Source: Thermodesulfobacteriota bacterium (GTDB lineage: Bacteria; Desulfobacterota; WTBG01; CAIYCZ01; CAIRTM01). Taken from it: a stretch of DNA of 64,000 bases. How positions within the stretch are numbered: position 1 is the first letter of the stretch; each line of letters starts with the position of its first letter. Both the position numbers and the translations under genes were made by a program. Positions 14,483 through 39,999 of this stretch are shown here, piece after piece. Below the pieces are notes generated by a model, which worked only from the letters and a program-made list of their open reading frames with translations, was not told where the DNA came from and ran no database searches. The stretch lies in the NCBI GenBank assembly GCA_028282925.1, contig JANQGV010000091.1:4748-68747 (forward strand), given 5' to 3'.

Positions 14483-15079
14483 ATGGACAGCAACAGGGCC
14501 ACCGAAATAAAACTGCTTAAGGGATGCATTTCCGGCGACAAAGCGCAGTGGGATATCTTCGTTGAAAAATACAACCAGCTGATTTACCATGCTATTTTCA
14601 AAACACTGCGGCAATATACAGGGGGCGGCGATCACACCGAAGATGTCAACGACCTCTTTCAGGAAGTCTTTACCGCACTGTGCGCTGATACGTGCAAAAA
14701 GCTGCGGGCATTCGACCCGGACAAGGGCTGCAGCCTGCCCAGTTGGCTGCGAATGATAACCGTCCGCATTACCATCGATCACCTACGCAAAAGCCGGCCG
14801 GAAACATCGCTGGATGCCGTTACCACCTCTCCCTCTCAAGACGGCATAGAGGGTGAAATGATTGGTGAAGAATCGCGATCAACCCTGAAAAAACTGCTGG
14901 AGAATCTCCCCTCACAGGACAAGCTGTTGATGGAACTTTCCTGCATACAGGAACTCCCCTCGCAGGAAACGGCCAGAATATTAAATATTACAATCGAGAA
15001 TCTATATACACGAAAAAACAGAATCTTAGGAAAATTAAAAAAAATAGCGCTTCGGGAAGAGTCTTTATGTAATAAATAA
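14483..15079 (+). CDS. ECF-type RNA polymerase sigma-70 factor
   Basis: The ORF spans 14384-15079; I place the start at 14483 (MDSNRATEIKLLKGCISGD). Sigma-70 region 2 (YNQLIYHAIFKTL..DVNDLFQEVF) and region 4 helix-turn-helix (LPSQETARILNITIENLYTRKNRILGKLKK). Confidence 0.85.
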   Translation: MDSNRATEIKLLKGCISGDKAQWDIFVEKYNQLIYHAIFKTLRQYTGGGDHTEDVNDLFQEVFTALCADTCKKLRAFDPDKGCSLPSWLRMITVRITIDHLRKSRPETSLDAVTTSPSQDGIEGEMIGEESRSTLKKLLENLPSQDKLLMELSCIQELPSQETARILNITIENLYTRKNRILGKLKKIALREESLCNK

Positions 15080-15153: not shown

Positions 15154-16062
15154 ATGAATGATGAACTGTTAAAAAAAGCGTTCAAAGACATGAAGCAGGA
15201 AATGCCCGAGACCGGACAATGCCCGGACGAGATGGATCTTGTCCGCTTTGCAGAGGGAAATACGGACGGTGCTGAAAGGCAAGCCATTGAGGGCCATCTG
15301 GTTGTGTGTCCAAACTGCTGCGAGTATGTTGTATCCTACACAAAAGCCGTAACTATTGCGGAAGAAATGAAACTGCCCGACGTGCCGGAAGACCAGATTC
15401 AGAAAGCGCGCTCTTTGGTAACACAATCGGAACCGGCTGCATACCGTCCTGCCGACAGGGCTTCCTTTTTTGACACGTGCCTGCACTTTTTCAGGTCGCT
15501 GCACTTCCGGCCTATGGCTGCATCCGGGGCTCTGGCGGTTCTTGCCCTGCTCGTAGTCACGTCCGGGCTTTTCATCTCACGTCACAATGCAGACACGACG
15601 AACCAGGGGGTATACGCTCCGCCCGGTATACACCTGCAGGTTCTCGGTAAAACCGCCTTGACCTTACGTAGCGGAGAGCAGCAAAACCGGACAATTGAAA
15701 AAATCATCAATGAGGGCGACACCCTTCAATCCAACGACCACTGCCGCATACAGTTCAGCGTAGAGCACGATGCCTATGTCTATGTTGTCTATTTCGATTC
15801 ATCGGGAAAAACCCATCAATTATTCCCGAACCCGGCAACAACACATCCTCAGAAAATAACCGGCGGCAAAACATACAGCATCCCCCCCGAAAAAGACAGA
15901 TGGTTCAAGCTGGACACTATTCCGGGAACCGAAACCGTTTTTGTCATAGCCGCCCGCCGGCCCATCGACAACCTTGAAAAAACATTTCAGAGCATCAGGC
16001 AATCCGGCATGCCGGAAGAGCCGGTCATCGCGGTAAAAAAACTCAGCTTCACCCACAACTAA
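15154..16062 (+). CDS. Anti-sigma factor, zinc-finger type, with transmembrane segment and C-terminal DUF4384-like domain
   Basis: 302-aa ORF 75 nt downstream of the ECF sigma gene. N-terminal H..C..CC zinc-finger anti-sigma motif (CPDEMDLVRFAEGNTDG...HLVVCPNCCEY). One TM helix (ALAVLALLVVTSGLFI). C-terminal beta-rich domain resembling DUF4384. Confidence 0.7.
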   Translation: MNDELLKKAFKDMKQEMPETGQCPDEMDLVRFAEGNTDGAERQAIEGHLVVCPNCCEYVVSYTKAVTIAEEMKLPDVPEDQIQKARSLVTQSEPAAYRPADRASFFDTCLHFFRSLHFRPMAASGALAVLALLVVTSGLFISRHNADTTNQGVYAPPGIHLQVLGKTALTLRSGEQQNRTIEKIINEGDTLQSNDHCRIQFSVEHDAYVYVVYFDSSGKTHQLFPNPATTHPQKITGGKTYSIPPEKDRWFKLDTIPGTETVFVIAARRPIDNLEKTFQSIRQSGMPEEPVIAVKKLSFTHN

Positions 16063-16699: not shown

Positions 16700-19600
16700 T
16701 CAACGCACCCTGTTTACCGTTTCTCTTTCCACACCTATCTCCTCCATAAAGCCACGGTCTTCAAGTCTGCGCAATACCAGGGCCAGGCCCTTTTTCAATC
16801 CCGGCGATGCTTTTGTCCGCAGTTTTTTCAGCACATGTACCATCCTTTTTTCCTGCATTTTGGTAATTTTTATCGTATCTCCGCATGTAAGGCCCGCCTT
16901 GAGTACTGCATACAATTCAAACATAAGGGTTCTCACCTCAGCCATAAGTTCCGGATGTGCTCCTAAAATGCCGGCGACTTCAGCGCTGTGTACGTAATAC
17001 AGATACACAAGCAGTCGGCCTGTTTCCGTTTTAATGAGCCGCTTGTCCCTGAAAGACCGTAAGGTATCAATTTTTTGTTTATTGGTTCCGGCCGCGCTTT
17101 GTAAAGGACAAACCGAACCCGGCTTCACCATAACCGCAAACTGTTGTCTGGCCTCTTGTCCGTTGCCATCCTGCACCGCAACTTCGATTTCGTGAGATCC
17201 CAGATCCTTGAGTTGCGGGGTCCAGGATATGTACCCCTTTAATACATCAATGGTCATAGTTTCGGGTTTTTGAGTCAACCGGTAAGAAAACATTCCCATT
17301 CCAGCGGTGTTTTTACCAGCCCCTGCTTCAGGCTCGGAATCGTTTGATTTGACTTCAACAGTATACACGTAATGCCTGCCGACAGTGGCCTGATTGTCCG
17401 GAACAGAAATAATAACCGGCGGATCAGAAAAGTTGATCGTTGTTGTAGAAGAGGAGTCCGATGTTGTGGTAGTCGTCTCTACATCAATGCTTGTTGTCGT
17501 TATTGTTGTTTCAATAATTACGGTCGTAGTAACCGTTGAAGTTGGGTCTATTGGTACAGACGTAGTAGATATGTTGCTCTTAGTTGTTGTGGTCGATGTT
17601 GTGGATTTCTTAATGCTTGTTGTCGTTGATGACGTGGTTTCTTTTACACTTGTTGTCGTGGTCGAAGACGACGTAGTCTCCTTAATACTTGTTGTCGTCG
17701 TCGATGACGTGGTTTTCTTAATGCTTGTTGTTGAAGTAGTAGACACCCAGTCCGGATACATACCGATATCGGCATTAAGTATCCTGGAGCGAGTGCCGAT
17801 GTTTAAACGATCATAATACAAATGGTATCCGGCAGCAGCGGCATATAAATTCCAGTCGCCCGGATAAAGATACAGGTCGTATCGACCCTGCATGGCAACT
17901 GCCGCACCACCGCCGTCAGTCATGATTACAGCCCCGTCAATAAGCTGGCTGGACATTTCATCACGCACCGTTCCGCTGACCAGCACAAGAAAATCCGGCC
18001 AATACGGATTATATACCCGTAAGGAGTACCTTGTTGTTGCGGCATCACCATCAAACAGCAGATCATTCCACAAACGAACATAATAGATACCATCCTCCGG
18101 ACACAGCCAGTCAAGATACACCATACCGTCTTCGTCGGGTATCTTTGACCTCCGCATATCAAGGTTTTCGTTGTAAAGCTCTATAACCGGTCGGCTGTTT
18201 TCTCCCAGATCATCTGCAGCTATGCTATAATACTCACCTTCCCGGCCGTAAAACATCACCCAGTCTTCATCCGTAGCAGTGCAGAAGGTATGCTTCTGGG
18301 CCTCCCGGGCATTAACAACAATTCCTCGTGCATCGTCTTTCGTGTTGTCGTCCTCAAATGCATCGGCTGTTGCGTCACTGCACCGCGCCTGGTATTCATG
18401 CAAATATACTTTTGTTTCCAGGGGCAGTGATGTATTATTGTCGTCGTCCCGGGCATACACCGTTATCTTGTAGTCCGTCACGTCATCCGGTTCAAACAAA
18501 CCAACAGCCAGTGCGGTTTCATTATCGTAGTCGAGATCAACTTCCACTAATTCATCATTCTCCCCGGGGAGATATTCGACCGGCGTAATAACCGCCCAGA
18601 CACGCTTAACAATACCGGTGCCGGTAACACTCGCCCATACGGATATCTCACCGGCCTCCGGCGACTCGGCAAAGAGTGCACTGATCATGGGGCTGTCGTC
18701 GGCAAAATTCAACCCGATACCGATCTTGTAGTTTGCCGCCAAAAAACCGTCGGCATATTCATTGGCGATACCGTTACCGTTATCGTCGAGTGACGGGGTC
18801 TGAGTTCGGTATCTCCTACTCAAGCAGCGTGCCGCTTTCCCGGAGTGCTTGTACGCATCATACACGTCTTCACCATTACGGACCTGACTCCAGAAAAAAG
18901 TGGAAGAAGATATAATTCCGCGCTGGCCGTAATAGGCGGTTTCATCGGCAGTGGTGCTGGTAAATACAATGCGCTTTTTGCCTTCCGGCGCCGCAAGGAG
19001 AGGGATGAAGCTTCCTGAGCGATCGGCATCATATATAACGGTGAGCATACCATCCATGTACGCCTGCAATTGGTCCAGCCAGCCGTCAAGCACAGCGGCG
19101 TGCAATATTTCATGATTGTTTATGCGGAATGTCCCGGCTCCGCCCGGCCCGATCATATACAGAACCAGATCATGGGTGGTGTTATGAGCAGCGTTTATGG
19201 TATTTTCAAGAGCGGCAAGGGTTGCCGCACCGTCTACACAATTGTGATTTCCGTAACAATGTATCCCCTCCGGACCGAGGAAAACGATATTCTCATCTGT
19301 ATAGCCCTGGGCCTTCAGGGCACCATAAGCTCGCTGTACGCCCTTTTTTGCATACACATCAGCGCGCCCTCCACCAACAACCACTATTGCCTTCTGAGCC
19401 AGAGGATTTTCAACAATAACCCGGGCCATACCGGCCGTAGAGGTATTGCCCTGCTCATCCATGGCGTAGACCGCTATATCATATGTTCCGGCCATGGTAA
19501 ACTGATCAAAGGTCCCTTCATAGCAAAGGGATTCTGTTACAGTTGACTCACCGGCAACCGAAGAAAGCTCAAAGGACGGCATTTCAACCATGGGGTTGTC

Positions 19601-22600
19601 AGCCTGGTCCTCGCTGAAGCCAGGCGGCACCACCACCGCCCACACACCTGAAAAATGACGCGAATCGGGATCAATGATATCACTCACCCTGATAGTAGCG
19701 CTTGTACCGTTGCTGATACTTTGTTCCTGTGGAAAAACAGTGCCGATTTCAGGGGCATGGCCTGAGATGCTTGTGCCGTAACCGATTTTCAATGATTTGG
19801 ATATTCTTTCCGGTTCTGACCGGGGAACCTGGTCTTCAAAGATGTTTATTATTGCGGAACCGGCTTTTTCAAAAGCCCGGCTGACCGACTCACCGCTGAA
19901 AACAGCACTCCAGAAATAGTTGGAAAATGAGATGGTTCCCTGAGCCAGAAACTTGGCTCGCTGGTTGCTGTCGGCGCTGGTAATAACAGTACGGTTTTCT
20001 TTTTTGAGAGCCTGCAGAAAGCTTCCTGAACTGCAGGCGTCATATACCACCGTCACGGGGCCGTCGAAGCTGTCGAGCCACTCTGCCAACTCCCCGGCCT
20101 TGAGCACTTCGCTTTCGTTCAGGCGCAAGGTTTGCGGTCCGCCATGGTCTATCAGGCATAGCACAAGACTGTCTGCATCCTGAGCCCATACGGTCAAAGC
20201 TTCATGCAGGTTTTTCCGCGTTGCAGCACCATCCACATCGTCAAACTCGCCGTTATTGTCCTGGTCCCAATGGATATCCGGCGATAAGTAGCAGATACGG
20301 TCCTTGCTAAACCCCTGGTACAAGAGAGTCCGATAGGCAAACTTGGCGTTCATGCTGGTGGCTCCCCACAGCGCATCCCCGGCATGGGTGCGCCCGGCAA
20401 CGATTATGGCCTTGCTGTTTGGCATTTGAAGCGGGGAGAAGACCTGGATGCGGTCGTTACCGGTATCGGCTACATAGATCCGGCCGTCTTTCCCGATGCA
20501 CAGGTCGCCGGGATCATTCATCTGACCGGGATTAAGACCCTTTCCGCCAAAAGCTTCGACAAACTGTCCCGCAGCCGTAAATTTCTGGATACGGTGATTA
20601 CCGCTGTCGGCCACATAGACATACACGTGGCCGAACTCGACTGCTGCAGCTATGCCACGGGGAGCGTTGAATTCACCTTGGCCATCGCCATAGGTTCCCC
20701 ACTGGCTTACATAGGTTCCATCCGGCTGAAACTTCTGGATACGATGATTACCGGTATCGGCCACATAGACATATCCATCGTGGTCAACAGCAATTCCGTG
20801 AGGATTTTCAAAGGCACCATCGCCTGTTCCGACCTCGCCCCATTCTGCTACTTGAGCATCATAATTACTTGTAAATTTAATAATATAGTGATTACCGCTA
20901 TCAACAACATATACATGCCCATTATCATCACAGGCTATGCCGCTCGGTTTGTAAAAATTATGAAAGGTGGTGTTTTTCGAATAGGAATGCCGCGATAAAC
21001 CGTATTCACCGAAACGGGTATACACCGAAACCTGATTATTACCGGTACCGGCAACATAGATTCTATTGCCCGAACCGACAGCAATGCCCTGGGGAGATCT
21101 GGCAGCATTACCGGACCACTCTGATATAAATTCACCATCTGCACTGAATTTTTGAATACGGTGATTATCCGTATCGGCTACATAGATATATCCCCGCTTG
21201 TCAACGGCAATACTTTCCGGCGCTATAAATTCACCACTTTGTTCTCCCCGGTTTGACATGGCGGAAACATGCGTAAGGTCGGCACCGCCATCATGAAACT
21301 TCTGAATACGGTTGTTCCATACATCCGTCAAATAAACAGTGCCTTGAACATTGGCCGCTATACCCGCAGGACTGCACAATTGATCATCGTCAGTGCCGCA
21401 TGTGCCTTTGACTGCAACAAATGCAATAGCTGATCCATCATCACGAAGCTTAACAATTCGATGATTTTCACTGTCGGAGACATATATCACGCCGGCCTCT
21501 CCTGCTGCTATACCAAGCGGAGAATCAAGCTCCCCGGCAGCAGACCCTTCACTTCCCCATGCCGTTAGAAACGTGCCGTTATCGTTGAATTTCTGGATGC
21601 GATGATTATACCGATCGGCCACATAGATGTGCCCGTTTCTATCTGATGCAATACCCCGCGGCAGATCAAACTCACCCTCCCCACTTCCATATGTTCCCCA
21701 TAGTGCAAGCAATTGACCATCGTTGTTAAACTTTACTATGCGGTCATTAAAGGTATCTGCCACATAGATATTGCCCCCTTGGTCAATCGTCACCCCTTGC
21801 GGATAGCTCAGTGAGTCATCACCGGTTATCTGCTCACAGATCTCCAACATAAAAGCCCCATTGGAGTCGAATTTCTGAATCCGGTGATTGTCCGTATCGA
21901 CAACAAACACATTACCATATAGATCCGTTGCTATACCGGTCGGATAGGCAAACTGGCCGTTCCCCGATCCCGGGCTGCCCCAAGAGGCAATAAACTTGCC
22001 ACCTGAGGTAAACTTTTGTATACGGTGCTTGCCGGTATCGGCCACATACAGATTGCCCCAGGGATCTACCGCCACATCGGCCGGGTGTGTGAAATACCAG
22101 GGATTCTTTAACGACGGCCACAAGCCGTTGCATACATATTTTGATACAAGGGCCTTATCCGCACGTATGTCTGACAGCTCAACACCGTCTTTTTCCAAAC
22201 GGGATATCTCTTCGTCATGAGTTCCGCCGAACGGGCTGAGGCCCGACAGCCCGTTTCCACCATCGCGTATAGCCTGGAGCGTTGGCCCGTCTCCGGAGCT
22301 GCCTGTAGTTGCACCTGGAAAACCATCCCCACCGGAAACACCGATTGCCTGTTCAGAAAACGCCCCGCCACCGGAATACTCGTCCGCCCCCATGTCGACT
22401 TCAGCAGAACCACTAGTATCTCCATCTATAATCCTGGGGTCACCGTCAATATCCATATCAGAAAGGGTAATACCCGTAGAACGTCCGGCATCAATACATG
22501 GTGAAGTCGAACGCAGATGCAAGTCACCATAGTCATCATCATCCGTACCCCACTCACCATCCGGACCCGCATCAGGATTGCGGACAAAGAGGGGGTCTGT

Positions 22601-23830
22601 ACGGATATTGCCGTTGGAGCCGGCATAGCCCTCCGCGACGACATCACTGTATGTGATACTAAAGGATGAACCAGAAGCACCTATGGATGTTAATGTACCC
22701 GCTGCTGCATTGCTCCATACAATACAATTAATAATACTATCTGATGATAGATGGAAATATATTTCGCTACCTCTCATTGCGCTATTATCGGAAATGGTAC
22801 AATTGGTTATGGTGGAATCGGAGGTATGATTCCTTATTCCCCCACCGTTTTTAGCGCTGTTACCCAAAAAAATGCAATTGGTAATATTGGGCGCGGAGGC
22901 AACGTTATCTATTCCACCGCCCACGTTAGCGGTGTTACCCAAGAAACTGCAATGAGTGACTGTGGGGGCATGAAAATTGTTATAGATTCCACCGCCTTGT
23001 GTTAAAGCATTGTTGCCTGAAAAAATACAGTCATTAATGTTGGGCGAAGATTTAAAATTACTTATCCCGCCACCCAAATCAGCTATATTACCCAAGAAGC
23101 TGCAACTGGTGAGAGTAGATGAGGACTCATTATTATATATTCCACCGCCTCGATACCCGGCATAGTTTTCAGTGAACGTGCAATTGTCAATGACAGTATT
23201 ACTGTAACTGGCATACAATGCGCCGCCTGACGTACCGGAAAAATTGTTTTCGAAAATACAGTTTATAATAACCAGGTCCCCATAGCGCACATAAAGCGCC
23301 CCGCCATCGCCGCCGACACTATTTTCTATAAACCTGCAATTGTTGAATGTGGGAGACGCATAGGCAATATAGCCCGCTCCGCCTTCTTCATCGAGTGTAC
23401 AGCCGTCATCAGCATTGCGGATGGTGAATCCGTCGATAGTGGCATTATCGGTTATATACAGCAAATTATAAACCGCATACTGACCGTCCAGCACGGTTTC
23501 ATAGAGGGCAACGTCCCGGTCCTCCCAATCCGGATAGGTAACATCAGCCGGAAAGCCGCCATAGATATGCACAGCCTTGTCAACCGCGATACTGGCCGAC
23601 AGGGGGTACCGGCCCTCCTTGACCAGTATCACGTCATCGGCTTCAGCCGCATCTATTGCATCTTGAAGGTTTTTAAAGGCATCGGCCCAGGCAAGACCAT
23701 ACCGGCTGGATGAATCCACACCGCCGTCTACGTACCAGGTAGTGGCGTGCAAATATGCACCAGGCAAACACAGATAGAATATAAAAGTTGTAATAAAAAA
23801 ACATAATGGGATTTTTACCGATTTCATCAC
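16700..23830 (-). CDS. Giant secreted/surface multidomain protein, paralog 1 (2376 aa). Domain order: signal peptide, Pmp-like GGxI/FxxN parallel beta-helix, 2x NHL beta-propeller, active peptidase C13 (legumain-like), inactive C13-like domain, PPC domain, CarboxypepD_reg-like, Thr-rich linker, Ig-like domain, conserved C-terminal domain.
   Basis: Single uninterrupted ORF with an N-terminal signal peptide. GGGIYNN/FxGN repeats as in polymorphic membrane protein repeats. The beta-helix ends with the cap motif DPGPDGEWGTDDDDYGDLHLRSTSPCIDAG. About 13 NHL repeats (YVADTGNHRIQKF). Legumain-like His/Cys dyad (LIDHGGPQ ... VYDACSSGSF). Second copy degenerate (MIGPGGAG ... IYDADRSGSF). PPC motif DEDWVMF. 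Confidence 0.9.
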   Translation of the reverse strand: MMKSVKIPLCFFITTFIFYLCLPGAYLHATTWYVDGGVDSSSRYGLAWADAFKNLQDAIDAAEADDVILVKEGRYPLSASIAVDKAVHIYGGFPADVTYPDWEDRDVALYETVLDGQYAVYNLLYITDNATIDGFTIRNADDGCTLDEEGGAGYIAYASPTFNNCRFIENSVGGDGGALYVRYGDLVIINCIFENNFSGTSGGALYASYSNTVIDNCTFTENYAGYRGGGIYNNESSSTLTSCSFLGNIADLGGGISNFKSSPNINDCIFSGNNALTQGGGIYNNFHAPTVTHCSFLGNTANVGGGIDNVASAPNITNCIFLGNSAKNGGGIRNHTSDSTITNCTISDNSAMRGSEIYFHLSSDSIINCIVWSNAAAGTLTSIGASGSSFSITYSDVVAEGYAGSNGNIRTDPLFVRNPDAGPDGEWGTDDDDYGDLHLRSTSPCIDAGRSTGITLSDMDIDGDPRIIDGDTSGSAEVDMGADEYSGGGAFSEQAIGVSGGDGFPGATTGSSGDGPTLQAIRDGGNGLSGLSPFGGTHDEEISRLEKDGVELSDIRADKALVSKYVCNGLWPSLKNPWYFTHPADVAVDPWGNLYVADTGKHRIQKFTSGGKFIASWGSPGSGNGQFAYPTGIATDLYGNVFVVDTDNHRIQKFDSNGAFMLEICEQITGDDSLSYPQGVTIDQGGNIYVADTFNDRIVKFNNDGQLLALWGTYGSGEGEFDLPRGIASDRNGHIYVADRYNHRIQKFNDNGTFLTAWGSEGSAAGELDSPLGIAAGEAGVIYVSDSENHRIVKLRDDGSAIAFVAVKGTCGTDDDQLCSPAGIAANVQGTVYLTDVWNNRIQKFHDGGADLTHVSAMSNRGEQSGEFIAPESIAVDKRGYIYVADTDNHRIQKFSADGEFISEWSGNAARSPQGIAVGSGNRIYVAGTGNNQVSVYTRFGEYGLSRHSYSKNTTFHNFYKPSGIACDDNGHVYVVDSGNHYIIKFTSNYDAQVAEWGEVGTGDGAFENPHGIAVDHDGYVYVADTGNHRIQKFQPDGTYVSQWGTYGDGQGEFNAPRGIAAAVEFGHVYVYVADSGNHRIQKFTAAGQFVEAFGGKGLNPGQMNDPGDLCIGKDGRIYVADTGNDRIQVFSPLQMPNSKAIIVAGRTHAGDALWGATSMNAKFAYRTLLYQGFSKDRICYLSPDIHWDQDNNGEFDDVDGAATRKNLHEALTVWAQDADSLVLCLIDHGGPQTLRLNESEVLKAGELAEWLDSFDGPVTVVYDACSSGSFLQALKKENRTVITSADSNQRAKFLAQGTISFSNYFWSAVFSGESVSRAFEKAGSAIINIFEDQVPRSEPERISKSLKIGYGTSISGHAPEIGTVFPQEQSISNGTSATIRVSDIIDPDSRHFSGVWAVVVPPGFSEDQADNPMVEMPSFELSSVAGESTVTESLCYEGTFDQFTMAGTYDIAVYAMDEQGNTSTAGMARVIVENPLAQKAIVVVGGGRADVYAKKGVQRAYGALKAQGYTDENIVFLGPEGIHCYGNHNCVDGAATLAALENTINAAHNTTHDLVLYMIGPGGAGTFRINNHEILHAAVLDGWLDQLQAYMDGMLTVIYDADRSGSFIPLLAAPEGKKRIVFTSTTADETAYYGQRGIISSSTFFWSQVRNGEDVYDAYKHSGKAARCLSRRYRTQTPSLDDNGNGIANEYADGFLAANYKIGIGLNFADDSPMISALFAESPEAGEISVWASVTGTGIVKRVWAVITPVEYLPGENDELVEVDLDYDNETALAVGLFEPDDVTDYKITVYARDDDNNTSLPLETKVYLHEYQARCSDATADAFEDDNTKDDARGIVVNAREAQKHTFCTATDEDWVMFYGREGEYYSIAADDLGENSRPVIELYNENLDMRRSKIPDEDGMVYLDWLCPEDGIYYVRLWNDLLFDGDAATTRYSLRVYNPYWPDFLVLVSGTVRDEMSSQLIDGAVIMTDGGGAAVAMQGRYDLYLYPGDWNLYAAAAGYHLYYDRLNIGTRSRILNADIGMYPDWVSTTSTTSIKKTTSSTTTTSIKETTSSSTTTTSVKETTSSTTTSIKKSTTSTTTTKSNISTTSVPIDPTSTVTTTVIIETTITTTSIDVETTTTTSDSSSTTTINFSDPPVIISVPDNQATVGRHYVYTVEVKSNDSEPEAGAGKNTAGMGMFSYRLTQKPETMTIDVLKGYISWTPQLKDLGSHEIEVAVQDGNGQEARQQFAVMVKPGSVCPLQSAAGTNKQKIDTLRSFRDKRLIKTETGRLLVYLYYVHSAEVAGILGAHPELMAEVRTLMFELYAVLKAGLTCGDTIKITKMQEKRMVHVLKKLRTKASPGLKKGLALVLRRLEDRGFMEEIGVERETVNRVR

Positions 23831-24095: not shown

Positions 24096-27000
24096 CTAGC
24101 GGTGTAACCGTCCCTGCTCCACGCCAATTTCTCTCAGAAAGCCGGCATCTTCAAGCCTCCGCAATACCAGGGCCAGGCTCTTTTTCAGCCCCGGGGACGC
24201 CTTATGCCGGATATTTTTCAAAACCGTGCGCACTTTTCTGCGGGCATCTCTTGAAAGGCTTCCAGGTTCATTATACACAACAATCTTTTTAAGTTCCGGC
24301 AGCAGTTCCCCTGCTATTTCACGTACCAATGCCATAAGACTGGGCTGCTGCGCCAGGATTCCATATATCTCAGGGCCATTGGCATAGTAAAGGTACAGAA
24401 GCGACCGCCCGGCAGCACTCCGGTACAGGCGGATGTCTCGGTAGCGCCTCAGCAGATCCAGGTTTTGCCTGTTATTGTTCAGCACCTGCGTGAGCACACA
24501 GCTCAGCGTCACCCGCACCGTAAACTCCTGGCTGACCCTTTGGCCCAGATTGTCTACGGCACACACTATTATCCTGTGATTGCCCAGTTGATCCAACCCA
24601 GGCGTCCAGGTGATGATACCGGTTTCCTTATCGATTGTCATTCCAGCGGGTGCCGATTCCAGTGCACATGTTACAACAGCACCACTGCGTACTTCCACAG
24701 TATAGCTATACTGTTCTCCTGCAAAGGCCGTCACCCGCGGTGATGATATTATCTCGACCGGCGGTGGTGGCGTAACCGTGATTGTAGTAGTTGTTGTTGA
24801 TGTTAAAGTTGATTCTATTGGTACCGTCGTTGTGGTGGTAGTAGCCGGCGGCGTAGAAGGCGATGAATCAATACTGGTGGTTGTAGAAGTATATGTACCT
24901 AACGGCTGCATGCTGATATCCTTCTGCATCACCATACTGCCCGTGACGACATTCAGGTGTTTCCGGCACCACTGGTACCCAGCCGCCTGCACCTCCAGGC
25001 TCCACTGGCCAGGGTAATGATACATTTCATAACGGCCACCTGTTGATATTGCTGCCCCTCCACCGTCGGTGGTAATGACGGCACCGTCTATGGGCTGCTG
25101 CGTTGTACTGTCTTTTACTTCCCCGCTCATCAGCACCAGGAAATCAGGCCAGTACGGATTGTAGATCCGCAGGCGATATCTGGTTGTATTCCCCTGCCCA
25201 TCCTCCTCATGCAGCAGGTAATTCCACAGCCGTACATAATAGATACCATCCTGCGGGCACAGCCAGTCAAGATACACTGCACCGCCCTCTTCCGGCACCT
25301 TCGAACGCTGCATATTGAGCTGTTCATTGTACAGCTCGATAACCGGCAGGCTGTTTACACCCAGATCATCCGTTACAATGCTGTAATATTCTCCTTCACG
25401 CCCGTAGAACTTCACCCAGTCTTCATCCGTAGCAGTACAAAAGTTGTGCTCCTGCGCCTGGCGGTCATTTACTAGTATTGCCCTTGCATGGTCTTTGTTG
25501 TTATCGTCTTCATATCCATCCGCACTATTCACTCTGCACAGTCCCTGCCCCTCACTCAGGTACACTTTAGTTTCAAAGGGCCTGGAAGTGTTGTTATCAT
25601 TATCTTGGGCATATACGGTTATCTTGTAATCCTGTGAGCCCGCTGCGTCAAAAAGGCCCGTGGCCGTTTCAGTTTCATTGTCATACGCAAGATCCATCTC
25701 CACCGGAAACTCACTCCCACCCGGGCAATGGTCTGCCGGCGTAATTACTGCCCAAATTCTTCTGATTTCTATGGTTCCGGTCACACCGGCTCTTATGGAC
25801 ACCTGATTGTTTTCTGCAGTTTCTGCAAAAACTGATCCGATCATGGGACCGTCGTCGGCAAAGTTCCACCCGATACCGATCTTGTAGTTCATAGCCAGCA
25901 GACCATCGGCATACTCATTTGCAACGGCATTGCCGTTATCATTGAGGCACGGAGTTTGGCTTCGGCAGCTTTTGTTTAAACAGCCGGCTGCTTTTTTAGC
26001 ATAAGTGAATGCATCATATACCTTTTCGCCGTTATAGATCTGACTCCAGAAAAAGGTCGAAAACGAGATAATCCCCTGGGTGCCGTAATACACCGTTTCA
26101 TCTGCAGCGGTGCTGGTAATTACGATCCGTTTCTTGTTTTCAGGGGGTGTGAGCCGCGGGATAAAGCTGCCGGAAAAATCGGCATCATACACAACGGTCA
26201 ACATCCCGTTCATGGTTGTCTGCAACTGGTCGAGCCACTGATCAAGCACAGAAGCCTGTAAAATTTCACTATCCTTTATATGGAACGATTCTGTATCGCC
26301 CTTTCCGATCATATAGAGCACCAGATCGTGGGTATTACTGTGGTCGGCAGTAAGTGTAGATTCAAGTACAGCAAGCGTTGCAGACTCGTCTACACAGGAG
26401 CCTGATCCATTGCAGCGCATTCCCTCGGGACCTAAAAATTCAATTGCATCATCGTCATACCCTTGTGTCTTCAGGGCACGATAGGCAAGCTCGGCTCCAT
26501 GCTTCACAAACAGATCTCCCGGCTCACCACCGGCTACAATAATCGCTTTCTGAGTCAACAGGTTATTCACGGTAACCGTTCCCATGCTGGGCGCCGAAGT
26601 ATTACCCTGGTCATCCATGGCATAGACCGCCACATCATATGCTCCGTCTATAGTAAACCCTTTAAAGGTGCCTTCATAGCATTTACCGGCATATCCGGAA
26701 CAGTCTGCTTCCTGCAACTCAAAGGACGGCAGTTCAACCATGGGATTGTCAATCGAGCCTTCATTGAACCCCGGGGGCAACACCACCGCCCATACCCCTG
26801 ACAGCGTACCGCTGTCAGGATCTGTGATCCCATTGGCCCGTATAGTGGCACTGGTACCACTTGTAATGGACTGGATGGCCGGAGACAGCTCTGCAATCTC
26901 AGGGGCAAGGCCTGATATGCTGGTTCCGTAACCAATGGTCAGGTTATCTGATATATTTACAGGTTCCGACATAGGGGTCTGGTCACCAAAGGTACTCACT

Positions 27001-30000
27001 ATTGCAGATCCGGCCTTTTCCATGGCCTGTTTTACCGGGGTACCGTTAAAGATATGATTCCAGAAATAATTTGAAAACGAAATAATACCCCGTCCCAGAA
27101 ACTTGGCCCGCTGATTTACATCGGTGCTGGTAATAACAGTACGGTTCTCTTTTTTCAATGCTTGCAAAAAACTTCCCGAACTGCAGGCATCATACACTAT
27201 CGTTGCAGGACCCGTAAAAACATCCAGCCACTGGCCAAACACTCCGGCTTCCAGCACTTCCTTATCGTTTAAGCGAAAGGTTTGGGGGCCGCCATGGTCT
27301 ATCAGGCACACAACAAGGCTGTCGGCATCCCGAGCCCACTCAGTCAAAGCGTTATACAGGTTCTCCATGGTGGGCTCACCGTCTACATCGTCAAACTCAC
27401 CGTTATTGTCCTGATCCCACAGGGTATCAGGCGACAAATAATAGATTGTCTCTTTTGTAAAGCCCTGGTACAGAAGCGCCCGATAGGCAAACTTGGCGTT
27501 CATACTGGTAGCATTCCACAGAGCATCTCCAGGGTGGGTACGGCCGGCAACGATTATGGCCTTACTGTTGGGCATCTGCAGGGGACTGAAAACCTGAATA
27601 CGGTTATTGCCGGTATCAGCCACATATACCCGTCCGTCTCTGGCGATACTCACGCCCCCGGGATCTTTAAACTGGCCTGGATTGGTACCTTTACTGCCCA
27701 GTGACTGAATAAAAGCACCATCAGCGGTAAACTTCTGGAGGCGGTGATTGCCGCTATCGGCCACATACACTACAATCCGTCCGGACTCATTGTCAGTAGT
27801 TATACCTCGGGGAGCGTTAAGCTCTCCTTCGCTGCTTCCATAGCCGCCCCACTGTCCAAGATAAATACCATTGGATGTAAACTTCTGGACACGATGATTA
27901 TTTGTGTCAGCTACATACACATTACCCTCCGCATCTATTGCTATGCCGTGAGGATTTCGGAATCTACCGGCCTCAATGCCATGGCCTCCCCATACTGTTT
28001 CAGTGTCATTAAAACCCGGGGTAAATTTCACTACATAGTGATTACCTCTATCGACAACATATATGTTATCCAGGCAATCAAAAGCTACGCCATAGGGCTC
28101 ATAAAAAAATTTATCCACATCGTCTTTAATATATTTATTTGCATACGTACGGTACTTGCAGTCACCAGTATATTTGGTGACCTGATTATAATCGGCACTC
28201 GCAGCATAAACATCACCTTGCGTGTCAGTAGCAATTCCTTGAACAAATCGGGTATCATACCTGGACCACTCGAACAAAAACACTCCGTCTATACCTAATT
28301 TCTGTATCCGGTGGTTTTCTGTATCAGCTACATACACATAACCCTGTTCATCAACCGTAACGCTTTCAGGCGATATAAACTCTCCGCCGCGCTCCCCCCG
28401 GTTTGAAAGAGTATAAACATAATTAAAATCAGCACCGGCATCACGAAACTTCTGAATGCGGTTGTTCCACACATCTGCCACATAGACATTCCCGCCGGCA
28501 TCTACCGCTATGCCGGAAGGAGTGCACAGTGAATCATGATCGGAACCGCATGAGCCCTTTACTGAGACAGGAGCAAAACCTGAGTTGTCATCACTGAGTT
28601 TAACGAGCCGATGATTCTCACTGTCGGTTACATATATCGCGTTGTTTGCGCCAACTGCAATGCCAAGGGGCGAGTCAAGCTGCGAGCCCCCATCTCCTTC
28701 ACTTCCCCACGTCATTAGAAACGTACCATCGTCGCGAAATTTTTGAATACGGTGATTATACCGGTCGGCCACATAGATGTGTCCATTTCTATCTGATGCG
28801 ATACCCCGGGGCAGATCAAACTCACCAGTGCCATCACCGTACGCACCCCAGCTAGCAATCAATTGACCACCTGGAGCAAACTTCACAATCCGGTCGTTAA
28901 AGGTATCTGCAACATAAATATTGCCCCATTGGTCAATCGTAATACCTTGAGGATAGCTTAAAGTGTCGGTATCTGTTATCTGCTCATAAATCTCCAGCAT
29001 GAAATTCCCATTGGCATCGAACTTTTGTATCCGATGGTTGTCGGTATCGGCTACGTACACATTACCATACAGGTCCGTTGCTATGCCGGTTGGATAGGCA
29101 AACTGCCCGTGTCCTGCCCCCGGGCTTCCCCAGGCTGCAATAAAATTTCCACCGGAAGAAAACTTCTGAATACAGTGTCTGCCGGTATCGGCCACATACA
29201 GATTACCCCAGGGGTCCACCGCCGCACCGGACGGATGCTCAAAATACCAGGGATTCTTTAATGATGGCCAGATACTCCTGCAGGTATACTGAAATACTGG
29301 GGCAACATGCAAAGCCGATTCCGATACAGTCTGCTCTTCTGCTTCTTCAAGAACACTGTTTTCATCTGCAGTGCCGTCCGTCAAAGGTTTACTGGCACTG
29401 CCAGTGCCACCTGACACATCCCCTAACCTAGGATCTGAGCTACTTTCCGCAATAACCGGAAGCAGGAGTGCACTGTCAGATTCATACAGATTCAGTGTCA
29501 CTGATGAAAGCGTTTGATCATGAGTAAATTCATCCGCCCCAATATCAACAAGAGCCTCACCGTTATCATCCCCATCCATGATCCTTTGGTCACCCTCAAT
29601 ATCAGTCGATAAAAGATGTGCAGCGGCATTGTTTCCGGCATCAATACAGGGAGAAGAAGCACTCAAATGCAAATCGCCGTAGTCATCATCAGCAGTACCC
29701 CACTCTTCATCAGGCCCGGGATCCGGGTTGCGAATAAACAATGGTTCTTTACGGATGTTACCATTACCATCCGCACTGCCGTCCGGTTTGCCAAATCCGC
29801 TTTGATCAATATTGCAATATGACAATGGAACATAATCAGAATAAGAGTAAAGCTGGGGGCCATTGTCTGCCGATGCATTACCAAGAAGGGCATTCCCCCA
29901 CATAAGACAATTAGAAAGAATATCATCGGTGCAGTTGTCACTCATAATTCCACCGCCGTAACCTGCCTTATTGCCGGACAGAGTGCAGTTAGTCATGGTG

Positions 30001-31568
30001 ATAGCAGAATCATTGCCGTATAGGCCACCACCGATATAAGCCTTATTGCCTGAAAAAACAGAGTTGACCACCACCGGGGCAGATGAATAAGTACTCATAC
30101 CACCACCAAAGGTTACGGCCAGGTTACCCAGAAAGGCGCAGTTACTAATTTTGGGGAAAGAATTACTCGTATTTAAAATCCCGCCTGCCTGGTGAGCGCT
30201 ATTGTTATTAATGATACAATCGGTTATTTCTGGTGAGGACTTTGCATTTAAAATTCCGCCGGCACTTTCATCGGCCTTATTACCCGAAAAAATTGAGCCG
30301 GTTATAATAGTATCGGATTCTTTGTTGTATATTCCACCACCCTTTACAACAGCACTATTGCCGGAAAAAATCGTATTTCTTATTATAGGGGAAGAATATT
30401 GTATATTTAATGCGCCACCATATTCAGCAATGTTGTCAACAAAACTGCATTTAGTAATCGTTGGAGAGGAATAATGGATAAAAACCGCTCCACCATATTT
30501 GTCGGTATCATTTTCCGCAAAGGTACAATTGTCAAATACCGGAAAGCTTTCCTTTAAATAGATAGCTGCACCGGAACCTTTGGCATAATTATTTTCAAAA
30601 GTGCAGTTACTGATGAGCGCATTGCTCTTATTGAGATAAACAGCTCCACCATACAAATCGACACTGTTGCCCGAAAAAGTACAATTGATGATAGTGGGAT
30701 TGGAATTATAATTACATATGCCGGCGCCGTTCTCTACCGCTTGATTAATCAAAAAGGTACAATTGTCAAAACTGGAAAAAGAGTCACTGGTATTTAAAAT
30801 CCCGCCTGCCTGATGAGCGCTATTATTATAAAAAATACAGTCGTTTATTTCTGGCGAGGACTTTGCGTTTAAAATTCCACCGGCGCTGACATCGGCACTA
30901 TTACCTGAAAAAATTGAGCCGGATATAGTGGGATTCGATTCTTTGTTGCATATTCCACCACCCTTAACAGCAGCGCTGTTGCCTGAAAAAACAGTATTTC
31001 TTATGGAGGGAGAGGAGTTTCGATTATAAATTCCACTGCCATATTCAGCCGTATTGTCGATAAAATTGCATTTAGTGATAGTCGGAGAGGAGTAATGGTT
31101 AAAAATCCCTCCACCATATTTGGCAGTATCATTTTTCGTAAAGGTACAATTGTCAATTACCGGAAAGCTTTCCTTTAAATAGATAGCTGCACCGGAACCT
31201 TCAGCAAAATTATTATCAAAATAGCAGTCGCTGATGAGCGTATTACTATTATTGAGATAAACAGCTCCACCATATAAACCAACACTGTTGTCTGTAAAAG
31301 TGCAATTGATGATGACTGGAGAAGCATAAACGATAAAGGCCCCCCCACCATCTGCTTCCTCCAAACATCCATCATCGGCATTGCGAATAGTAAGCCCGTC
31401 TACGGTGGCATTGTCGGTTATGTACAGTAAATTATAGACCGAATACTGACCGTCCAGTACAGTTTCATACAGCCCCGCATCCCGGTCCTCCCACTCCGGG
31501 TAGTCAACATCTGCCGGAAATCCACCATAGATATGCACAACCTTATCGATTTCGACACTGCCCGACAA
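24096..31568 (-). CDS. Giant secreted/surface multidomain protein, paralog 2, main reading frame (2490 aa) with the same architecture as paralog 1. Its N-terminus is supplied by the frameshifted fragment at 31418-31789.
   Basis: Homologous to paralogs 1 and 3 along the whole length. It contains an internal tandem duplication of about 205 aa of Pmp-like repeats. C13 dyad LIDHGGPQ/VYDACSSGSF, then degenerate MIGKGD/VYDADFSGSF. Confidence 0.85.
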   Translation of the reverse strand: MSGSVEIDKVVHIYGGFPADVDYPEWEDRDAGLYETVLDGQYSVYNLLYITDNATVDGLTIRNADDGCLEEADGGGAFIVYASPVIINCTFTDNSVGLYGGAVYLNNSNTLISDCYFDNNFAEGSGAAIYLKESFPVIDNCTFTKNDTAKYGGGIFNHYSSPTITKCNFIDNTAEYGSGIYNRNSSPSIRNTVFSGNSAAVKGGGICNKESNPTISGSIFSGNSADVSAGGILNAKSSPEINDCIFYNNSAHQAGGILNTSDSFSSFDNCTFLINQAVENGAGICNYNSNPTIINCTFSGNSVDLYGGAVYLNKSNALISNCTFENNYAKGSGAAIYLKESFPVFDNCTFAENDTDKYGGAVFIHYSSPTITKCSFVDNIAEYGGALNIQYSSPIIRNTIFSGNSAVVKGGGIYNKESDTIITGSIFSGNKADESAGGILNAKSSPEITDCIINNNSAHQAGGILNTSNSFPKISNCAFLGNLAVTFGGGMSTYSSAPVVVNSVFSGNKAYIGGGLYGNDSAITMTNCTLSGNKAGYGGGIMSDNCTDDILSNCLMWGNALLGNASADNGPQLYSYSDYVPLSYCNIDQSGFGKPDGSADGNGNIRKEPLFIRNPDPGPDEEWGTADDDYGDLHLSASSPCIDAGNNAAAHLLSTDIEGDQRIMDGDDNGEALVDIGADEFTHDQTLSSVTLNLYESDSALLLPVIAESSSDPRLGDVSGGTGSASKPLTDGTADENSVLEEAEEQTVSESALHVAPVFQYTCRSIWPSLKNPWYFEHPSGAAVDPWGNLYVADTGRHCIQKFSSGGNFIAAWGSPGAGHGQFAYPTGIATDLYGNVYVADTDNHRIQKFDANGNFMLEIYEQITDTDTLSYPQGITIDQWGNIYVADTFNDRIVKFAPGGQLIASWGAYGDGTGEFDLPRGIASDRNGHIYVADRYNHRIQKFRDDGTFLMTWGSEGDGGSQLDSPLGIAVGANNAIYVTDSENHRLVKLSDDNSGFAPVSVKGSCGSDHDSLCTPSGIAVDAGGNVYVADVWNNRIQKFRDAGADFNYVYTLSNRGERGGEFISPESVTVDEQGYVYVADTENHRIQKLGIDGVFLFEWSRYDTRFVQGIATDTQGDVYAASADYNQVTKYTGDCKYRTYANKYIKDDVDKFFYEPYGVAFDCLDNIYVVDRGNHYVVKFTPGFNDTETVWGGHGIEAGRFRNPHGIAIDAEGNVYVADTNNHRVQKFTSNGIYLGQWGGYGSSEGELNAPRGITTDNESGRIVVYVADSGNHRLQKFTADGAFIQSLGSKGTNPGQFKDPGGVSIARDGRVYVADTGNNRIQVFSPLQMPNSKAIIVAGRTHPGDALWNATSMNAKFAYRALLYQGFTKETIYYLSPDTLWDQDNNGEFDDVDGEPTMENLYNALTEWARDADSLVVCLIDHGGPQTFRLNDKEVLEAGVFGQWLDVFTGPATIVYDACSSGSFLQALKKENRTVITSTDVNQRAKFLGRGIISFSNYFWNHIFNGTPVKQAMEKAGSAIVSTFGDQTPMSEPVNISDNLTIGYGTSISGLAPEIAELSPAIQSITSGTSATIRANGITDPDSGTLSGVWAVVLPPGFNEGSIDNPMVELPSFELQEADCSGYAGKCYEGTFKGFTIDGAYDVAVYAMDDQGNTSAPSMGTVTVNNLLTQKAIIVAGGEPGDLFVKHGAELAYRALKTQGYDDDAIEFLGPEGMRCNGSGSCVDESATLAVLESTLTADHSNTHDLVLYMIGKGDTESFHIKDSEILQASVLDQWLDQLQTTMNGMLTVVYDADFSGSFIPRLTPPENKKRIVITSTAADETVYYGTQGIISFSTFFWSQIYNGEKVYDAFTYAKKAAGCLNKSCRSQTPCLNDNGNAVANEYADGLLAMNYKIGIGWNFADDGPMIGSVFAETAENNQVSIRAGVTGTIEIRRIWAVITPADHCPGGSEFPVEMDLAYDNETETATGLFDAAGSQDYKITVYAQDNDNNTSRPFETKVYLSEGQGLCRVNSADGYEDDNNKDHARAILVNDRQAQEHNFCTATDEDWVKFYGREGEYYSIVTDDLGVNSLPVIELYNEQLNMQRSKVPEEGGAVYLDWLCPQDGIYYVRLWNYLLHEEDGQGNTTRYRLRIYNPYWPDFLVLMSGEVKDSTTQQPIDGAVITTDGGGAAISTGGRYEMYHYPGQWSLEVQAAGYQWCRKHLNVVTGSMVMQKDISMQPLGTYTSTTTSIDSSPSTPPATTTTTTVPIESTLTSTTTTTITVTPPPPVEIISSPRVTAFAGEQYSYTVEVRSGAVVTCALESAPAGMTIDKETGIITWTPGLDQLGNHRIIVCAVDNLGQRVSQEFTVRVTLSCVLTQVLNNNRQNLDLLRRYRDIRLYRSAAGRSLLYLYYANGPEIYGILAQQPSLMALVREIAGELLPELKKIVVYNEPGSLSRDARRKVRTVLKNIRHKASPGLKKSLALVLRRLEDAGFLREIGVEQGRLHR

Positions 31569-32031: not shown

Positions 32032-35000
32032 TCATTTTCTGCCAGTATTTGAGTGTTTTATACCGATATCCTGTAAAAAACCAACGTCTTCAAGTCTGCG
32101 CAATACCAGGGCCAGACTTTTTTTCAGTCCAGGGGAGGCCTTCTGCCGGATATCTTTAAGCAGCCTGCGCGCTTTTCTGCGCGTGTCTTCCGGCAGGCCG
32201 ATCGGTTCATTCTTCTCAGCCCCCTTTTTAAGCTCCGGAAGCAGTTCCCTGACCGTTTTACGCACTGATGTCATAAGGCCGGGCTGTTTGGCAAGGATTG
32301 CATATATCTCAGGTCCGTTGGCATAGTAAAGGTACAAAAGCCCCCTGCCGGCTGCACTCCGGTACAACCTGCTGTCACGGTAGCTTCTCAGCAGGTCCAG
32401 GTCTTGCCTGTTATTGTTCAGCACCTGCGTAAGCACACAACTCAGTGTCACCCGCACCGTAAACTCCTGGCTCACCTTCCGGCCCAGGTCGTCTGTAACA
32501 CATACGACAACCCTGTGGTTGCCCAGTTGCTCCAGCGCAGGTGTCCAGGTTATGGTTCCTGTTGTTTTATCAATCACCATTCCTGCCGGTGCCGACTGCA
32601 GTTCACACGTTACCGCTGCACCGCCACTGACTTCTACGGTATAGGTATACTGTTCATCAACAAAGGCCATTGCCCGGGGGGTCGATACGATCTCAAGGGG
32701 CTCCGGGGGTGGTGCAACCGTGGTTGTTGTGGTCGCAAGATTGCCGTCATCAATGGTCGTTGTCGTCGATGAGGTTGTTTCCACGGGCACCGTTGTGGTT
32801 GTTGCTGGGGGCGATGAAGAAGAGGAATCAATACTGGTAGTGGTTGATGTATTCGTACTTAGCGGTAGCATGCTGATATCTTTCTGCATCACCATACTTC
32901 CTGTTCCTACAGTAATGTACTCACGGTACCACTGGTACCCGGAAGAACGGGCCTCCAGGGTCCACCGGCCCGGATACTGGTACAGCTCATAGCGCCCTTG
33001 CTCCGATATTGCAGCCCCACCTCCGTCGGTGGTAATCACGGCTCCGTCTATGGGCTGCCGCGTTGTACCGTCTTTTACCTCTCCGCTCATCAGCACCAGG
33101 AAATCCGGCCAGTAGGGGTTATAGACCCGCAGGCTGTAACCGGTTGTTACAGTATCCTGTCCATCTTCGTCATACAGCAGGTAATTCCACAGCCGTACAT
33201 AGTAAACACCATCCTCAGGGCACAGCCAGTCCAGGTACACCGCCCCGCCCTCTTCCGGCACCTTCGAGCGCTGCATATCAAGCTGTTCATTGTACAGCTC
33301 AATAACCGGCAGGCTGTTTTCTCCCAGGTTGTCCGTTACAATACTGTAGTATTCTCCTTCCAGGCCGTAGAACTTTACCCAGTCTTCATCACGGGCACTG
33401 CAAAAGCTGTGTTCCTGGGGTTCCCGTGCATTTACCACTATTACCCGGGCCTCTTCTTTGCTGTTGTCTTCTTCATAGGCATCTGCCGTACCTGCGCTGC
33501 ACAGCCCCCCCTGCCCAAGATACACCTTGGTTTCAAAGGGGCGGGAGGTGTTATTATCCGCATCCCGGGCATACACTGTTATTTTATAGTCTTGTGAAGA
33601 GGTGGGTTCAAAAAGGCCCGTGGCCGTTTCCGATGCAATATCGTAGAAAAGCTCGACTTCTTCCACTGCTTCATCCCCGCCCGGGCACGAGTCTATCGGC
33701 GTCACAACGGCCCACACCCTTTTAACCTCTCCTGTTCCGGTAACTCCTGCCTGTATTGATATACGGTTATTCTCTTCTGCTTCCGCAAACACTGAGCCCA
33801 CCATGGGGCCGTCATCGGCAAAGTTCCACCCGATGCCGATTTTGTAGTTCATGGCAAGCAGACCGTCGGCATATTCATTAGCTATGCCGTTACCGTTATC
33901 ATTGAGACTCGGTGTCTGGGGCCGGCAGCTCTTGTTCAGACAGTTCGAGGCCTTTTTGGCATAGCTAAAGGCATCATGCACCTTCTCCCCGTTATACACC
34001 CGGCTCCAGAAAAAGGTCGAAAAGGATATAAGCCCCCGGCTGCCGTAATACACAGGCTCATCTGCTGCGGTGCTGGTGATAACGATGCGTTTCTTGTTCT
34101 CCGGCGGGGTGAGAAGCGGAATGAAGCTGCCGGAATAGTCGGCGTCATAGATGACGGTAAGCACCCCATCCATATTCGCCTGCAATTCATCCAGCCAGCT
34201 ATCAAGCTCGGAAACTGAAAGAATTTCACTATCATTAATGTGGAACTCTAACGGCCCGCCCTGTCCAACCAGATACAGCACTAGATCATGGGTACTGTTT
34301 CGAGCGGCCTCCAGGGCTCCTCTCAGAGATGAAATGCTTGCAGAACCATCCGGCTCTAAAACCGTAATTACGCCATCTTTGTACCCCTGCGTTTTCAGAG
34401 CATGATAGGCAAGATCTACACCCTTTTCCACAAAACCATCCCCTCCCTTCGTTCCAGCAACAATGATTGCCTTCTGGGTCAACGGGCTTTCAACCTTTAC
34501 TTCCGATACCAACGGCACAGAGGTATTCCCCTGGTCATCCATGGCATACACTGCTAACTGATACTCTCCGTCTATGGTAAATTTATCAAAACTTCCTTCA
34601 TAGCACTTGCCGCTGTACCCGTCACAGTCAACTTCCTGCAATTCAAAAAACGGAAGTTCCACCATGGGGTTGTCGATTGAGTCTTCACTGAAGCCCGGCG
34701 GCAGCACAACAGCCCATACCCCGGACAGTGTAGCGCTGTCAGGGTCGGTAATTCTGTTGGCACGTATCGTTGCAGTAGTGCCGCTTGTGATTGTCTGGGT
34801 GTCAGGATATATCTCTGCTATCTCAGGGGCGCTGCCGGATATACTGGTGCCGTAACCGATGACAAGGTCAGCTGATATGTCTGAGGGCTCCGACAGTGGC
34901 GTCTGGTTGTGAAAAGTGCTTTCAACGGCTGTGCCGGCCTTTTCCATGGCTTCCCGTACCGGGACTCCGTTAAAAATATGGTTCCAGAAATAATTTGAAA

Positions 35001-39720: not shown

Positions 39721-39999
39721 GATGCCCCTCTGGGTTCGGCAAAATGACCAGAAAGCCGGCATCTGCCCGGAAATGCATACCATTTGATCGAGCTTCAACC
39801 AAATGGGTATATGCTACTGATGACGGTTTCTTTTCTGTTTACACTCGTAATGTGGCTACCTGGTAAACAAATATTACAATACCGATTGCAGCCGATAAAA
39901 TATAAAATCGCATACTAACAAAAATTACGAAAAAAACAATACTGAAAGTATTTACTCAGTCTAAAATGAGTAAAAATACGGATAAACACTGGTCGTCTG

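Follow-up and report, generated by a model that had tools for sequence, protein, structure and literature searches.

To our knowledge, enzymes of the legumain family (MEROPS C13, PF01650) are known almost entirely from eukaryotes, namely as asparaginyl endopeptidases, as peptide ligases and as the glycosylphosphatidylinositol (GPI) transamidase, the catalytic subunit of which is GPI8 (PIGK). In the legumain structure Asn42 orients the catalytic histidine, and Arg44 and His45 build the asparagine-binding S1 pocket together with Glu187 and Asp231; the Asn-Tyr-Arg-His segment running from Asn42 to His45 is common to legumain and GPI8. Here we report on a stretch of 64,000 nucleotides from a Thermodesulfobacteriota bacterium (assembly GCA_028282925.1, contig JANQGV010000091.1, positions 4,748 to 68,747 of the forward strand), referred to as the window, which encodes three giant proteins, G1, G2 and G3, each with two domains of the C13 fold in tandem. 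The first domain (D1) retains the histidine and the cysteine of the catalytic dyad, and the second (D2) has lost both. Together with a beta-sandwich after each of them, the two domains form a cassette of about 690 residues in each of G1-G3, in which D1 is probably an extracellular endopeptidase and D2 its fixed non-catalytic partner.

Active domains paired with dead ones are already familiar from clan CD. The analogues proposed for the cassette are the pseudo-protease/active-protease pair of separase, subdomains A and B of the gingipains, and caspase-8 with cFLIP. As in these pairs, two homologous caspase-like domains are present and only one of them has the dyad; the catalytic domain is succeeded by an Ig-like one, which is also the case in gingipains and MALT1. 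The cassette differs from them in that the pair lies within C13, that a beta-sandwich is inserted between the domains and that the active domain comes first. Such pairing within bacterial C13 is unstudied: databases already label proteins of this kind "C13 family peptidase", but our literature search turned up no publication that deals with this bacterial branch of C13, with the pseudo-domain built into it or with the CFI-box, a C-terminal domain of G1 described below. Bacterial pseudo-variants of clan CD enzymes, the pseudo-orthocaspases, are documented (PMC6426788).

The first domain and its kinship with legumain and GPI8

G1, G2 and G3 are encoded head to tail by three large open reading frames (ORFs) on the minus strand of the window and are paralogs whose amino-acid identity varies by region (54-79%). 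In all three translations D1 contains the motifs LIDHGGP and VYDAC(S/R)SGSF with the histidine and the cysteine intact, and D2 reads YDAD(R/F/Y)SGSF at the second of these sites, the cysteine being replaced by Asp throughout and the histidine by Pro, Lys and Gln in G1, G2 and G3, respectively (Table 1). The original prediction had put forward exactly these residues, and they stand in the translated frames as well as in an alignment of the six domains, in which the replacement residues of D2 share columns with the His and Cys of D1. The two dyad residues, initially put at about 40 residues apart, are separated by 37 residues in D1 and their equivalents by 41 in D2, the latter being also the distance in legumain. 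All four codons in G1 lie inside the interval initially assigned to the pair (18950-20200), while the full domains extend slightly beyond it.

Membership of D1 in the C13 family is indicated by several comparisons. The Pfam model Peptidase_C13 (PF01650) matches D1 of G1, G2 and G3 with 37.9, 26.5 and 34.8 bits, respectively, at a gathering score of 22.8. When a profile built from 24 D1 sequences was compared with the PDB, legumains and plant asparaginyl endopeptidases were retrieved from E = 4.6e-8 and GPI8 at E ~3e-5, with DHGG placed over (N/D)HG and D-A-C-x-S-G-S over E-(A/S)-C-E-S-G-S. The same profile aligned with human legumain in hhalign (probability 96.6%, E = 6.9e-10) so that His1229 of G1 falls on H148, Cys1266 on C189 and Asp1264, an acidic residue separated from the cysteine by one position, on E187; the legumain sequence used agrees with that of PDB 4fgu except at its first residue and at one site with Q in place of N or vice versa (N-to-Q). 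The motifs first singled out as catalytic thus do correspond to the legumain positions, and as judged from these alignments D1 carries the C13/legumain dyad in the right register.

An identity of D1 as caspase or metacaspase was considered and rejected, such proteins matching the profile in the PDB at E 0.06-0.12 as compared to 5e-8 for legumain.

An AlphaFold2 model of the G1 cassette (residues 1128-1815, computed from a 26-row alignment) has a mean predicted local distance difference test score (pLDDT) of 85.6 and a predicted template modelling score (pTM) of 0.81 and consists of four domains, alpha/beta (D1), beta-sandwich, alpha/beta (D2) and beta-sandwich. His1229, Cys1266 and their D2 equivalents, which had been proposed for mapping onto such a model, are each located one or two residues past a beta-strand, as is usual in clan CD. 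Foldseek comparison of the cassette model with the PDB returned plant asparaginyl endopeptidases, human legumain and GPI8 as top matches from E = 4e-10, with a target-normalised template modelling score (TM) of ~0.6 for human legumain and E ~2e-9 for GPI8; MALT1 followed at a lower rank. The likeness to legumain accordingly comprises the caspase-like alpha/beta fold, the His-Gly and Ala-Cys dyad elements in register and the acidic residue before the cysteine, and that to GPI8 the C13 fold and the dyad.

On the other hand, the cassette departs from both enzymes. In legumain the C13-fold domain is followed by the helical C-terminal prodomain LSAM, through which legumain is a zymogen; this prodomain is absent here, the ~110 residues following D1 and those following D2 being all-beta in the model, and for the sandwich between the domains of G1 a comparison with Pfam gave Ig-like matches below threshold only. 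Unlike legumain, to which its sequence identity is no more than about 15-18%, D1 is embedded in a giant bacterial extracellular protein and paired with a dead copy; unlike GPI8, it is a domain within a giant secreted protein of bacteria, in which there is no GPI pathway. Asn42, Arg44 and His45 of legumain align to Ala, Ala and Thr in D1 of G1 (family consensus LWxAT), in a segment of the hhalign alignment that is of low confidence, and no motif resembling Asn-Tyr-Arg-His was found anywhere in the corresponding region of D1. The equivalent of Asp231 is not alignable, and that of Glu187 is kept as Asp. Since Asn42, Arg44 and His45 are not conserved and a C-terminal prodomain of the legumain type is lacking, asparaginyl specificity of D1 appears unlikely; the residue preferred in P1 would then be other than Asn and may be basic, because the acidic pocket residue is retained and the Arg and the His are missing. 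The C13 assignment originally made therefore holds for family and fold, but its extension to asparaginyl endopeptidases and the GPI transamidase is weakened by the replaced residues and by the beta-sandwich standing in place of LSAM.

D1 furthermore contains a conserved acidic loop, DxDxDxNGxxDDVDG, at residues 1185-1205 of G1 (approximately 20216-20278 in the window) and likewise in G2 and G3. Residues D61, D63 and D70 of the D1 alignment are nearly invariant in this loop, which looks like a calcium-binding motif by its sequence and is deleted in D2.

The second domain and the spread of the cassette among bacteria

Profiles of D1 and D2 from many genomes align with each other over 236 columns (E = 1e-77), which identifies D2 as a genuine duplicate of D1. 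By sequence, D2 is barely recognizable as a C13 domain: Peptidase_C13 scores are borderline or absent (23.3 bits in G1, no match in G2, 26.0 bits in G3), a single-sequence phmmer search of the PDB gave noise only, a D2 profile reached legumain at no better than E ~0.08, and hhalign aligned D2 to legumain in the correct register with a probability of 3.8%. It is consequently by homology to D1 and by fold that D2 is assigned to the family. Modelled alone, D2 attains a pLDDT of 82 and a pTM of 0.85, and its best Foldseek matches are legumain and GPI8 (E = 1.4e-11, query-normalised TM 0.66). D2, as modelled, keeps the legumain fold without the dyad.

The combination of an intact first and a dead second domain is not confined to G1-G3. 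A word-indexed protein search yielded 26 homologs, in which D1 always has His and Cys and D2 never has the His. By a genome scan, performed on one genome per species with a narrow D1-based alignment as query, 70 loci were found in Desulfobacterales, Hydrogenedentota, Nitrospirota, Gammaproteobacteria and Magnetococcus, including the cultured Desulfonema magnum (L019) and Desulfamplus magnetovallimortis (L053). These loci comprise 51 tandem proteins with a median D1-D2 start-to-start spacing of 348 residues; the first domain has both His and Cys in 50/51 and the second lacks the His in 50/51. An exhaustive HMMER search of 1.84 billion representatives returned 2851 proteins at E<=1e-3 and 976 at E<=1e-30, and nearly all of the top 150 matches span the full 688-residue cassette. 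Among 142 two-domain proteins from the top representatives D1 has His and Cys in 141. A second domain with both residues occurs in two, in both cases ~913 residues downstream and hence as a separate module, and at cassette spacing not a single D2 has the two dyad residues together. Dead copies precede the live copy in a few proteins (P0007, P0015), the first of which has been automatically annotated as GPI8 by the Joint Genome Institute. All D2 domains form a group separate from D1 in a neighbour-joining tree, and a single old duplication is thereby implied. As a module of bacteria the cassette is ancient and widespread and not peculiar to this genome.

The proteins that harbour the cassette are bacterial and extracellular and comprise 1,000-4,000 amino acids. 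Their C-terminal anchors are of many kinds and include PF00395 (SLH) and PF00404 (dockerin), or are lacking. No neighbour gene is conserved across the 70 loci, homologs of the GPI8 partner subunits GAA1, PIG-S, PIG-T and PIG-U not having been searched for. With its varied anchors and without conserved neighbours the cassette behaves as a portable extracellular module. These findings also bear on the idea that D1 is a transpeptidase or sorting enzyme in the manner of GPI8 or of PorU of type IX secretion, which would cleave a C-terminal signal, for example CFI-box-CTERM, and link proteins to an anchor at the surface, D2 serving as a scaffold. Clan CD includes transpeptidases of the GPI8/PorU type, GPI8 is among the nearest folds, and G1 does end in a sorting-type CFI-box-CTERM domain (NCBIfam NF041770, residues 2250-2304, within 16700-17600 of the window; 41.5 bits at a cut-off of 40). 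However, the cassette is not tied to the CFI-box, given that it occurs with many different C-terminal anchors or without any, it resides inside the putative cargo instead of forming a separate enzyme, it lacks the Asn42 to His45 segment, and it has no conserved partner genes, all of which makes a sorting transpeptidase very unlikely. The C-terminus of one homolog (P0021) resembles the CFI-box-CTERM end of G1.

Constraint on the second domain and the probable roles of the pair

Ratios of nonsynonymous to synonymous substitution (dN/dS) among G1-G3, roughly estimated according to Nei and Gojobori, amount to 0.11-0.12 for D1 and 0.09-0.14 for D2. In the family as a whole the mean pairwise identity is 50% for D1 and 39% for D2, D2 being the lower one in 97% of the sampled protein pairs. 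D2 is constrained, though less than D1. The proposal that D2 is a maintained pseudo-protease is borne out by its dN/dS, which is like that of D1, and by its conservation across phyla. That D2 could be a decaying, functionless relic is scarcely credible: both dyad positions do belong to its more variable columns and it does evolve faster than D1 in the pairs just mentioned, but dN/dS is ~0.1, the fold is retained in a confident model and the spacing is constant across several phyla and hundreds of clusters, so that conservation largely refutes this explanation.

Constraint on D2 is not focused on the former dyad. The column entropy is 3.12 bits at the former His position (88th percentile) and 2.55 bits at the former Cys position (66th percentile), with a median of 1.91 bits for all columns. 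In the 142 representatives the latter position is occupied by Asp (48), Cys (33), Ser (25), Pro (14), Asn (9) and others. On a tree of 143 D2 domains it requires at least 64 parsimony steps (62nd percentile; column median 52), and Asp is spread over 25 separate all-Asp groups. What is constant in D2 throughout the family is that the dyad is no longer intact, the His being lost in nearly all cases. The conserved elements are the Asp that stands two residues ahead of the former Cys (0.13 bits, as compared to 0.44 bits in D1), the Gly preceding the former His, where D1 reads D-H-G and D2 reads G-x-G, and the motifs SGSF and ISFSxFFW.

In view of entropy and parsimony we reject Asp at the former nucleophile position as a selected residue, and the Asp is common to the three paralogs through descent from one ancestor. 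The original reasoning that the same Cys-to-Asp exchange in three paralogs argues for maintenance is therefore weak; recent paralogs have inherited the exchange, and the position varies family-wide. At this site Asp would have been inherited and tolerated, without taking on a new catalytic role. A gain of function by the YDAD (D-x-D) motif of the Asp-bearing D2 domains, either as a divalent-cation site or as a new catalytic centre, is correspondingly highly improbable. Asp is indeed the commonest residue at this place and is always preceded, two positions upstream, by a nearly invariant Asp; the latter is, however, equally conserved beside Cys, Ser or Pro, the position itself changes often and carries Asp in small clades only, and a second conserved catalytic residue was not found in D2.

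The conserved elements of D2 may be viewed in yet another way. D2 could be an independent ligand-binding module with a substrate-like, non-cleaving cleft that serves, apart from D1, to target the giant protein or to capture peptides or proteins. Purifying selection on D2, the retention of SGSF and ISFSxFFW and the Asp before the former Cys, which is kept more tightly in D2 than in D1, would all be in line with such a role. These motifs could, however, be purely structural, and the strictly constant order and spacing of D1 and D2 as well as the high pTM of the four-domain model suggest a single unit, so that we regard an independent module as unlikely. The same pTM of 0.81 and the constant spacing hint at a possible direct packing of D1 against D2.

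The reading we consider probable is that of D1 as an extracellular endopeptidase with D2 as its fixed non-catalytic partner. D1 is predicted to be a working cysteine endopeptidase from its dyad and fold, and would act outside the cell because the giant proteins possess signal peptides, parts that resemble adhesins (beta-helix and NHL) and, at the C-terminus, a domain of the sorting type. Typical signal peptides can be read directly from the N-termini of G1 and G3. In G1 the signal peptide is followed by a PMP-repeat beta-helix, NHL propellers, the cassette, further beta domains, a Thr/Ser linker and CFI-box-CTERM; Pfam and NCBIfam detect N-terminal Chlamydia-PMP repeats, which indicate the beta-helix, at least 12 NHL repeats, one Peptidase_C13 match and the CFI-box-CTERM. 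The substrates of D1 would most likely be the giant protein of which it is part and/or further proteins of the surface or the extracellular space, the gingipain polyproteins offering an analogy. D2 would be held at a fixed distance, probably as one rigid unit with D1, and would stabilise, position or regulate D1 or offer a binding cleft that does not cleave. A more far-reaching version, in which the cassette is an intramolecular pseudo-heterodimer with D2 activating or gating D1, and in which, among Desulfobacterota, Hydrogenedentota and other phyla, it is the enzyme that processes or ligates giant adhesin-like proteins at the surface, is in our opinion distinctly unlikely.

Several points weigh against the endopeptidase with a fixed partner. 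Proteins exist that possess one D1 and no D2 (L051, L053, P0016 and P0021; in L051 and L053 with D1 and a beta-sandwich only), which means that D1-type domains do not strictly need D2. The S1-pocket argument is tentative, given that the legumain alignment is of low confidence in its N-terminal part, where Asn42, Arg44 and His45 lie, and saturation of synonymous divergence among the G1-G3 paralogs (dS >1) is the reason why the dN/dS values are rough. Finally, our literature search found no activity data for any member of this bacterial C13 subfamily.

The giant genes, their neighbourhood and the meaning of the branch

The positions of the three genes, their cassette domains and the adjacent genes are compiled in Table 1. 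In the database G1 (P0027) begins at an ATG at 23827 and G3 (P0028) comprises 2562 amino acids, from which we conclude that Met27, encoded at ~39720, is the likely start of G3. The main ORF of G2 lacks a signal peptide; its N-terminus, with the signal-peptide segment, is encoded upstream in another frame, starting with a GTG at 31777. The translation of this upstream segment (31560-31780, minus strand), VKKTRLLLFF...LHAATWYVDGG..., is homologous to G1 and G3, and the frame is broken by one missing base near 31590, where TTTTGTCAAAGAG is found and TTTTGGTCAAAGAG is expected. The apparent 1-nucleotide frameshift could be a sequencing error, a sign of a recent pseudogene or a case of slippage.

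Table 1. Features of the giant genes and their surroundings in the window (aa, amino acids)
Feature	Position in window	Strand	Description
G1	16700..23830	-	giant secreted protein, 2376 aa counted from GTG
G1 D1	19814..20416	-	aa 1139-1339; intact dyad His1229 (codon 20144-20146), Cys1266 (codon 20033-20035)
G1 beta-sandwich (Ig-like) between D1 and D2	19412..19741	-	aa 1364-1473; all-beta in AlphaFold2 model
G1 D2	18785..19399	-	aa 1478-1682; Pro1562 (19145-19147) at His position, Asp1603 (19022-19024) at Cys position
G1 second beta-sandwich, after D2	18407..18688	-	aa 1715-1808; from AlphaFold2 model
G2 main ORF	24096..31568	-	2490 aa
G2 D1	26964..27566	-	intact dyad His1425 (27294-27296), Cys1462 (27183-27185)
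G2 D2	25941..26555	-	Lys1756 (26301-26303) at His position, Asp1797 (26178-26180) at Cys position
G3	32032..39798	-	2588 aa counted from TTG
G3 D1	34888..35490	-	intact dyad His1527 (35218-35220), Cys1564 (35107-35109)
G3 D2	33901..34479	-	Gln1846 (34261-34263) at His position, Asp1887 (34138-34140) at Cys position
FadL/TodX outer-membrane protein	40000-41349	-	upstream of giant genes, same strand
TPR/Glucodextran_B/FlgO-CsgG-like protein	41361-43355	-	upstream of giant genes, same strand
TPR+CHAT protein	43382-46108	-	CHAT E = 1e-45; upstream of giant genes, same strand
776-aa ORF	47321-49651	+	no Pfam match at E<=0.001
ECF-type sigma factor	14384-15079	+	converges on G1 3' end
Putative anti-sigma factor	15154-16062	+	zf-HC2 and DUF4384; converges on G1 3' end

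Along their length, G2 and G3 do not diverge evenly at synonymous sites. The divergence amounts to ~0.6-0.7 in the beta-helix and NHL parts, to ~0.83-0.85 in the PPC/carboxypeptidase-regulatory-like and C-terminal regions and to ~1.3-2.2 over the D1-D2 cassette, a pattern suggestive of gene conversion among the paralogs or of a mosaic history. The GC content drops to 0.40-0.42 at 30001-32000 and 38001-40000, as compared to ~0.50 elsewhere; the spacers between the genes and the 5' portions of G2 and G3 fall within these stretches.

Among the genes upstream of the giants, one encodes CHAT, itself a caspase-like clan CD domain. The extracytoplasmic function (ECF)-type sigma factor and its putative anti-sigma factor may regulate the giant-gene cluster. 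FadL-like neighbours are present in 6/70 loci and the commonest neighbour cluster in 11/70; on these counts we reject a fixed gene system with conserved operon partners.

Judged by sequence, the window belongs to a large, experimentally untouched bacterial branch of the legumain family, in which the predicted enzyme and a conserved dead copy of it are parts of one chain and the asparagine-binding pocket of legumain appears to be lacking. This branch lends itself naturally to studying what a pseudo-protease contributes as a partner, and it could yield clan CD proteases of new specificity, or ligases, as tools. Should the cassette really be a pseudo-heterodimer, it would represent a bacterial counterpart of the sorting proteases of the GPI8/PorU type with a built-in regulatory pseudoenzyme. 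For sulfate reducers and related bacteria the branch offers a handle on the processing of giant surface proteins.

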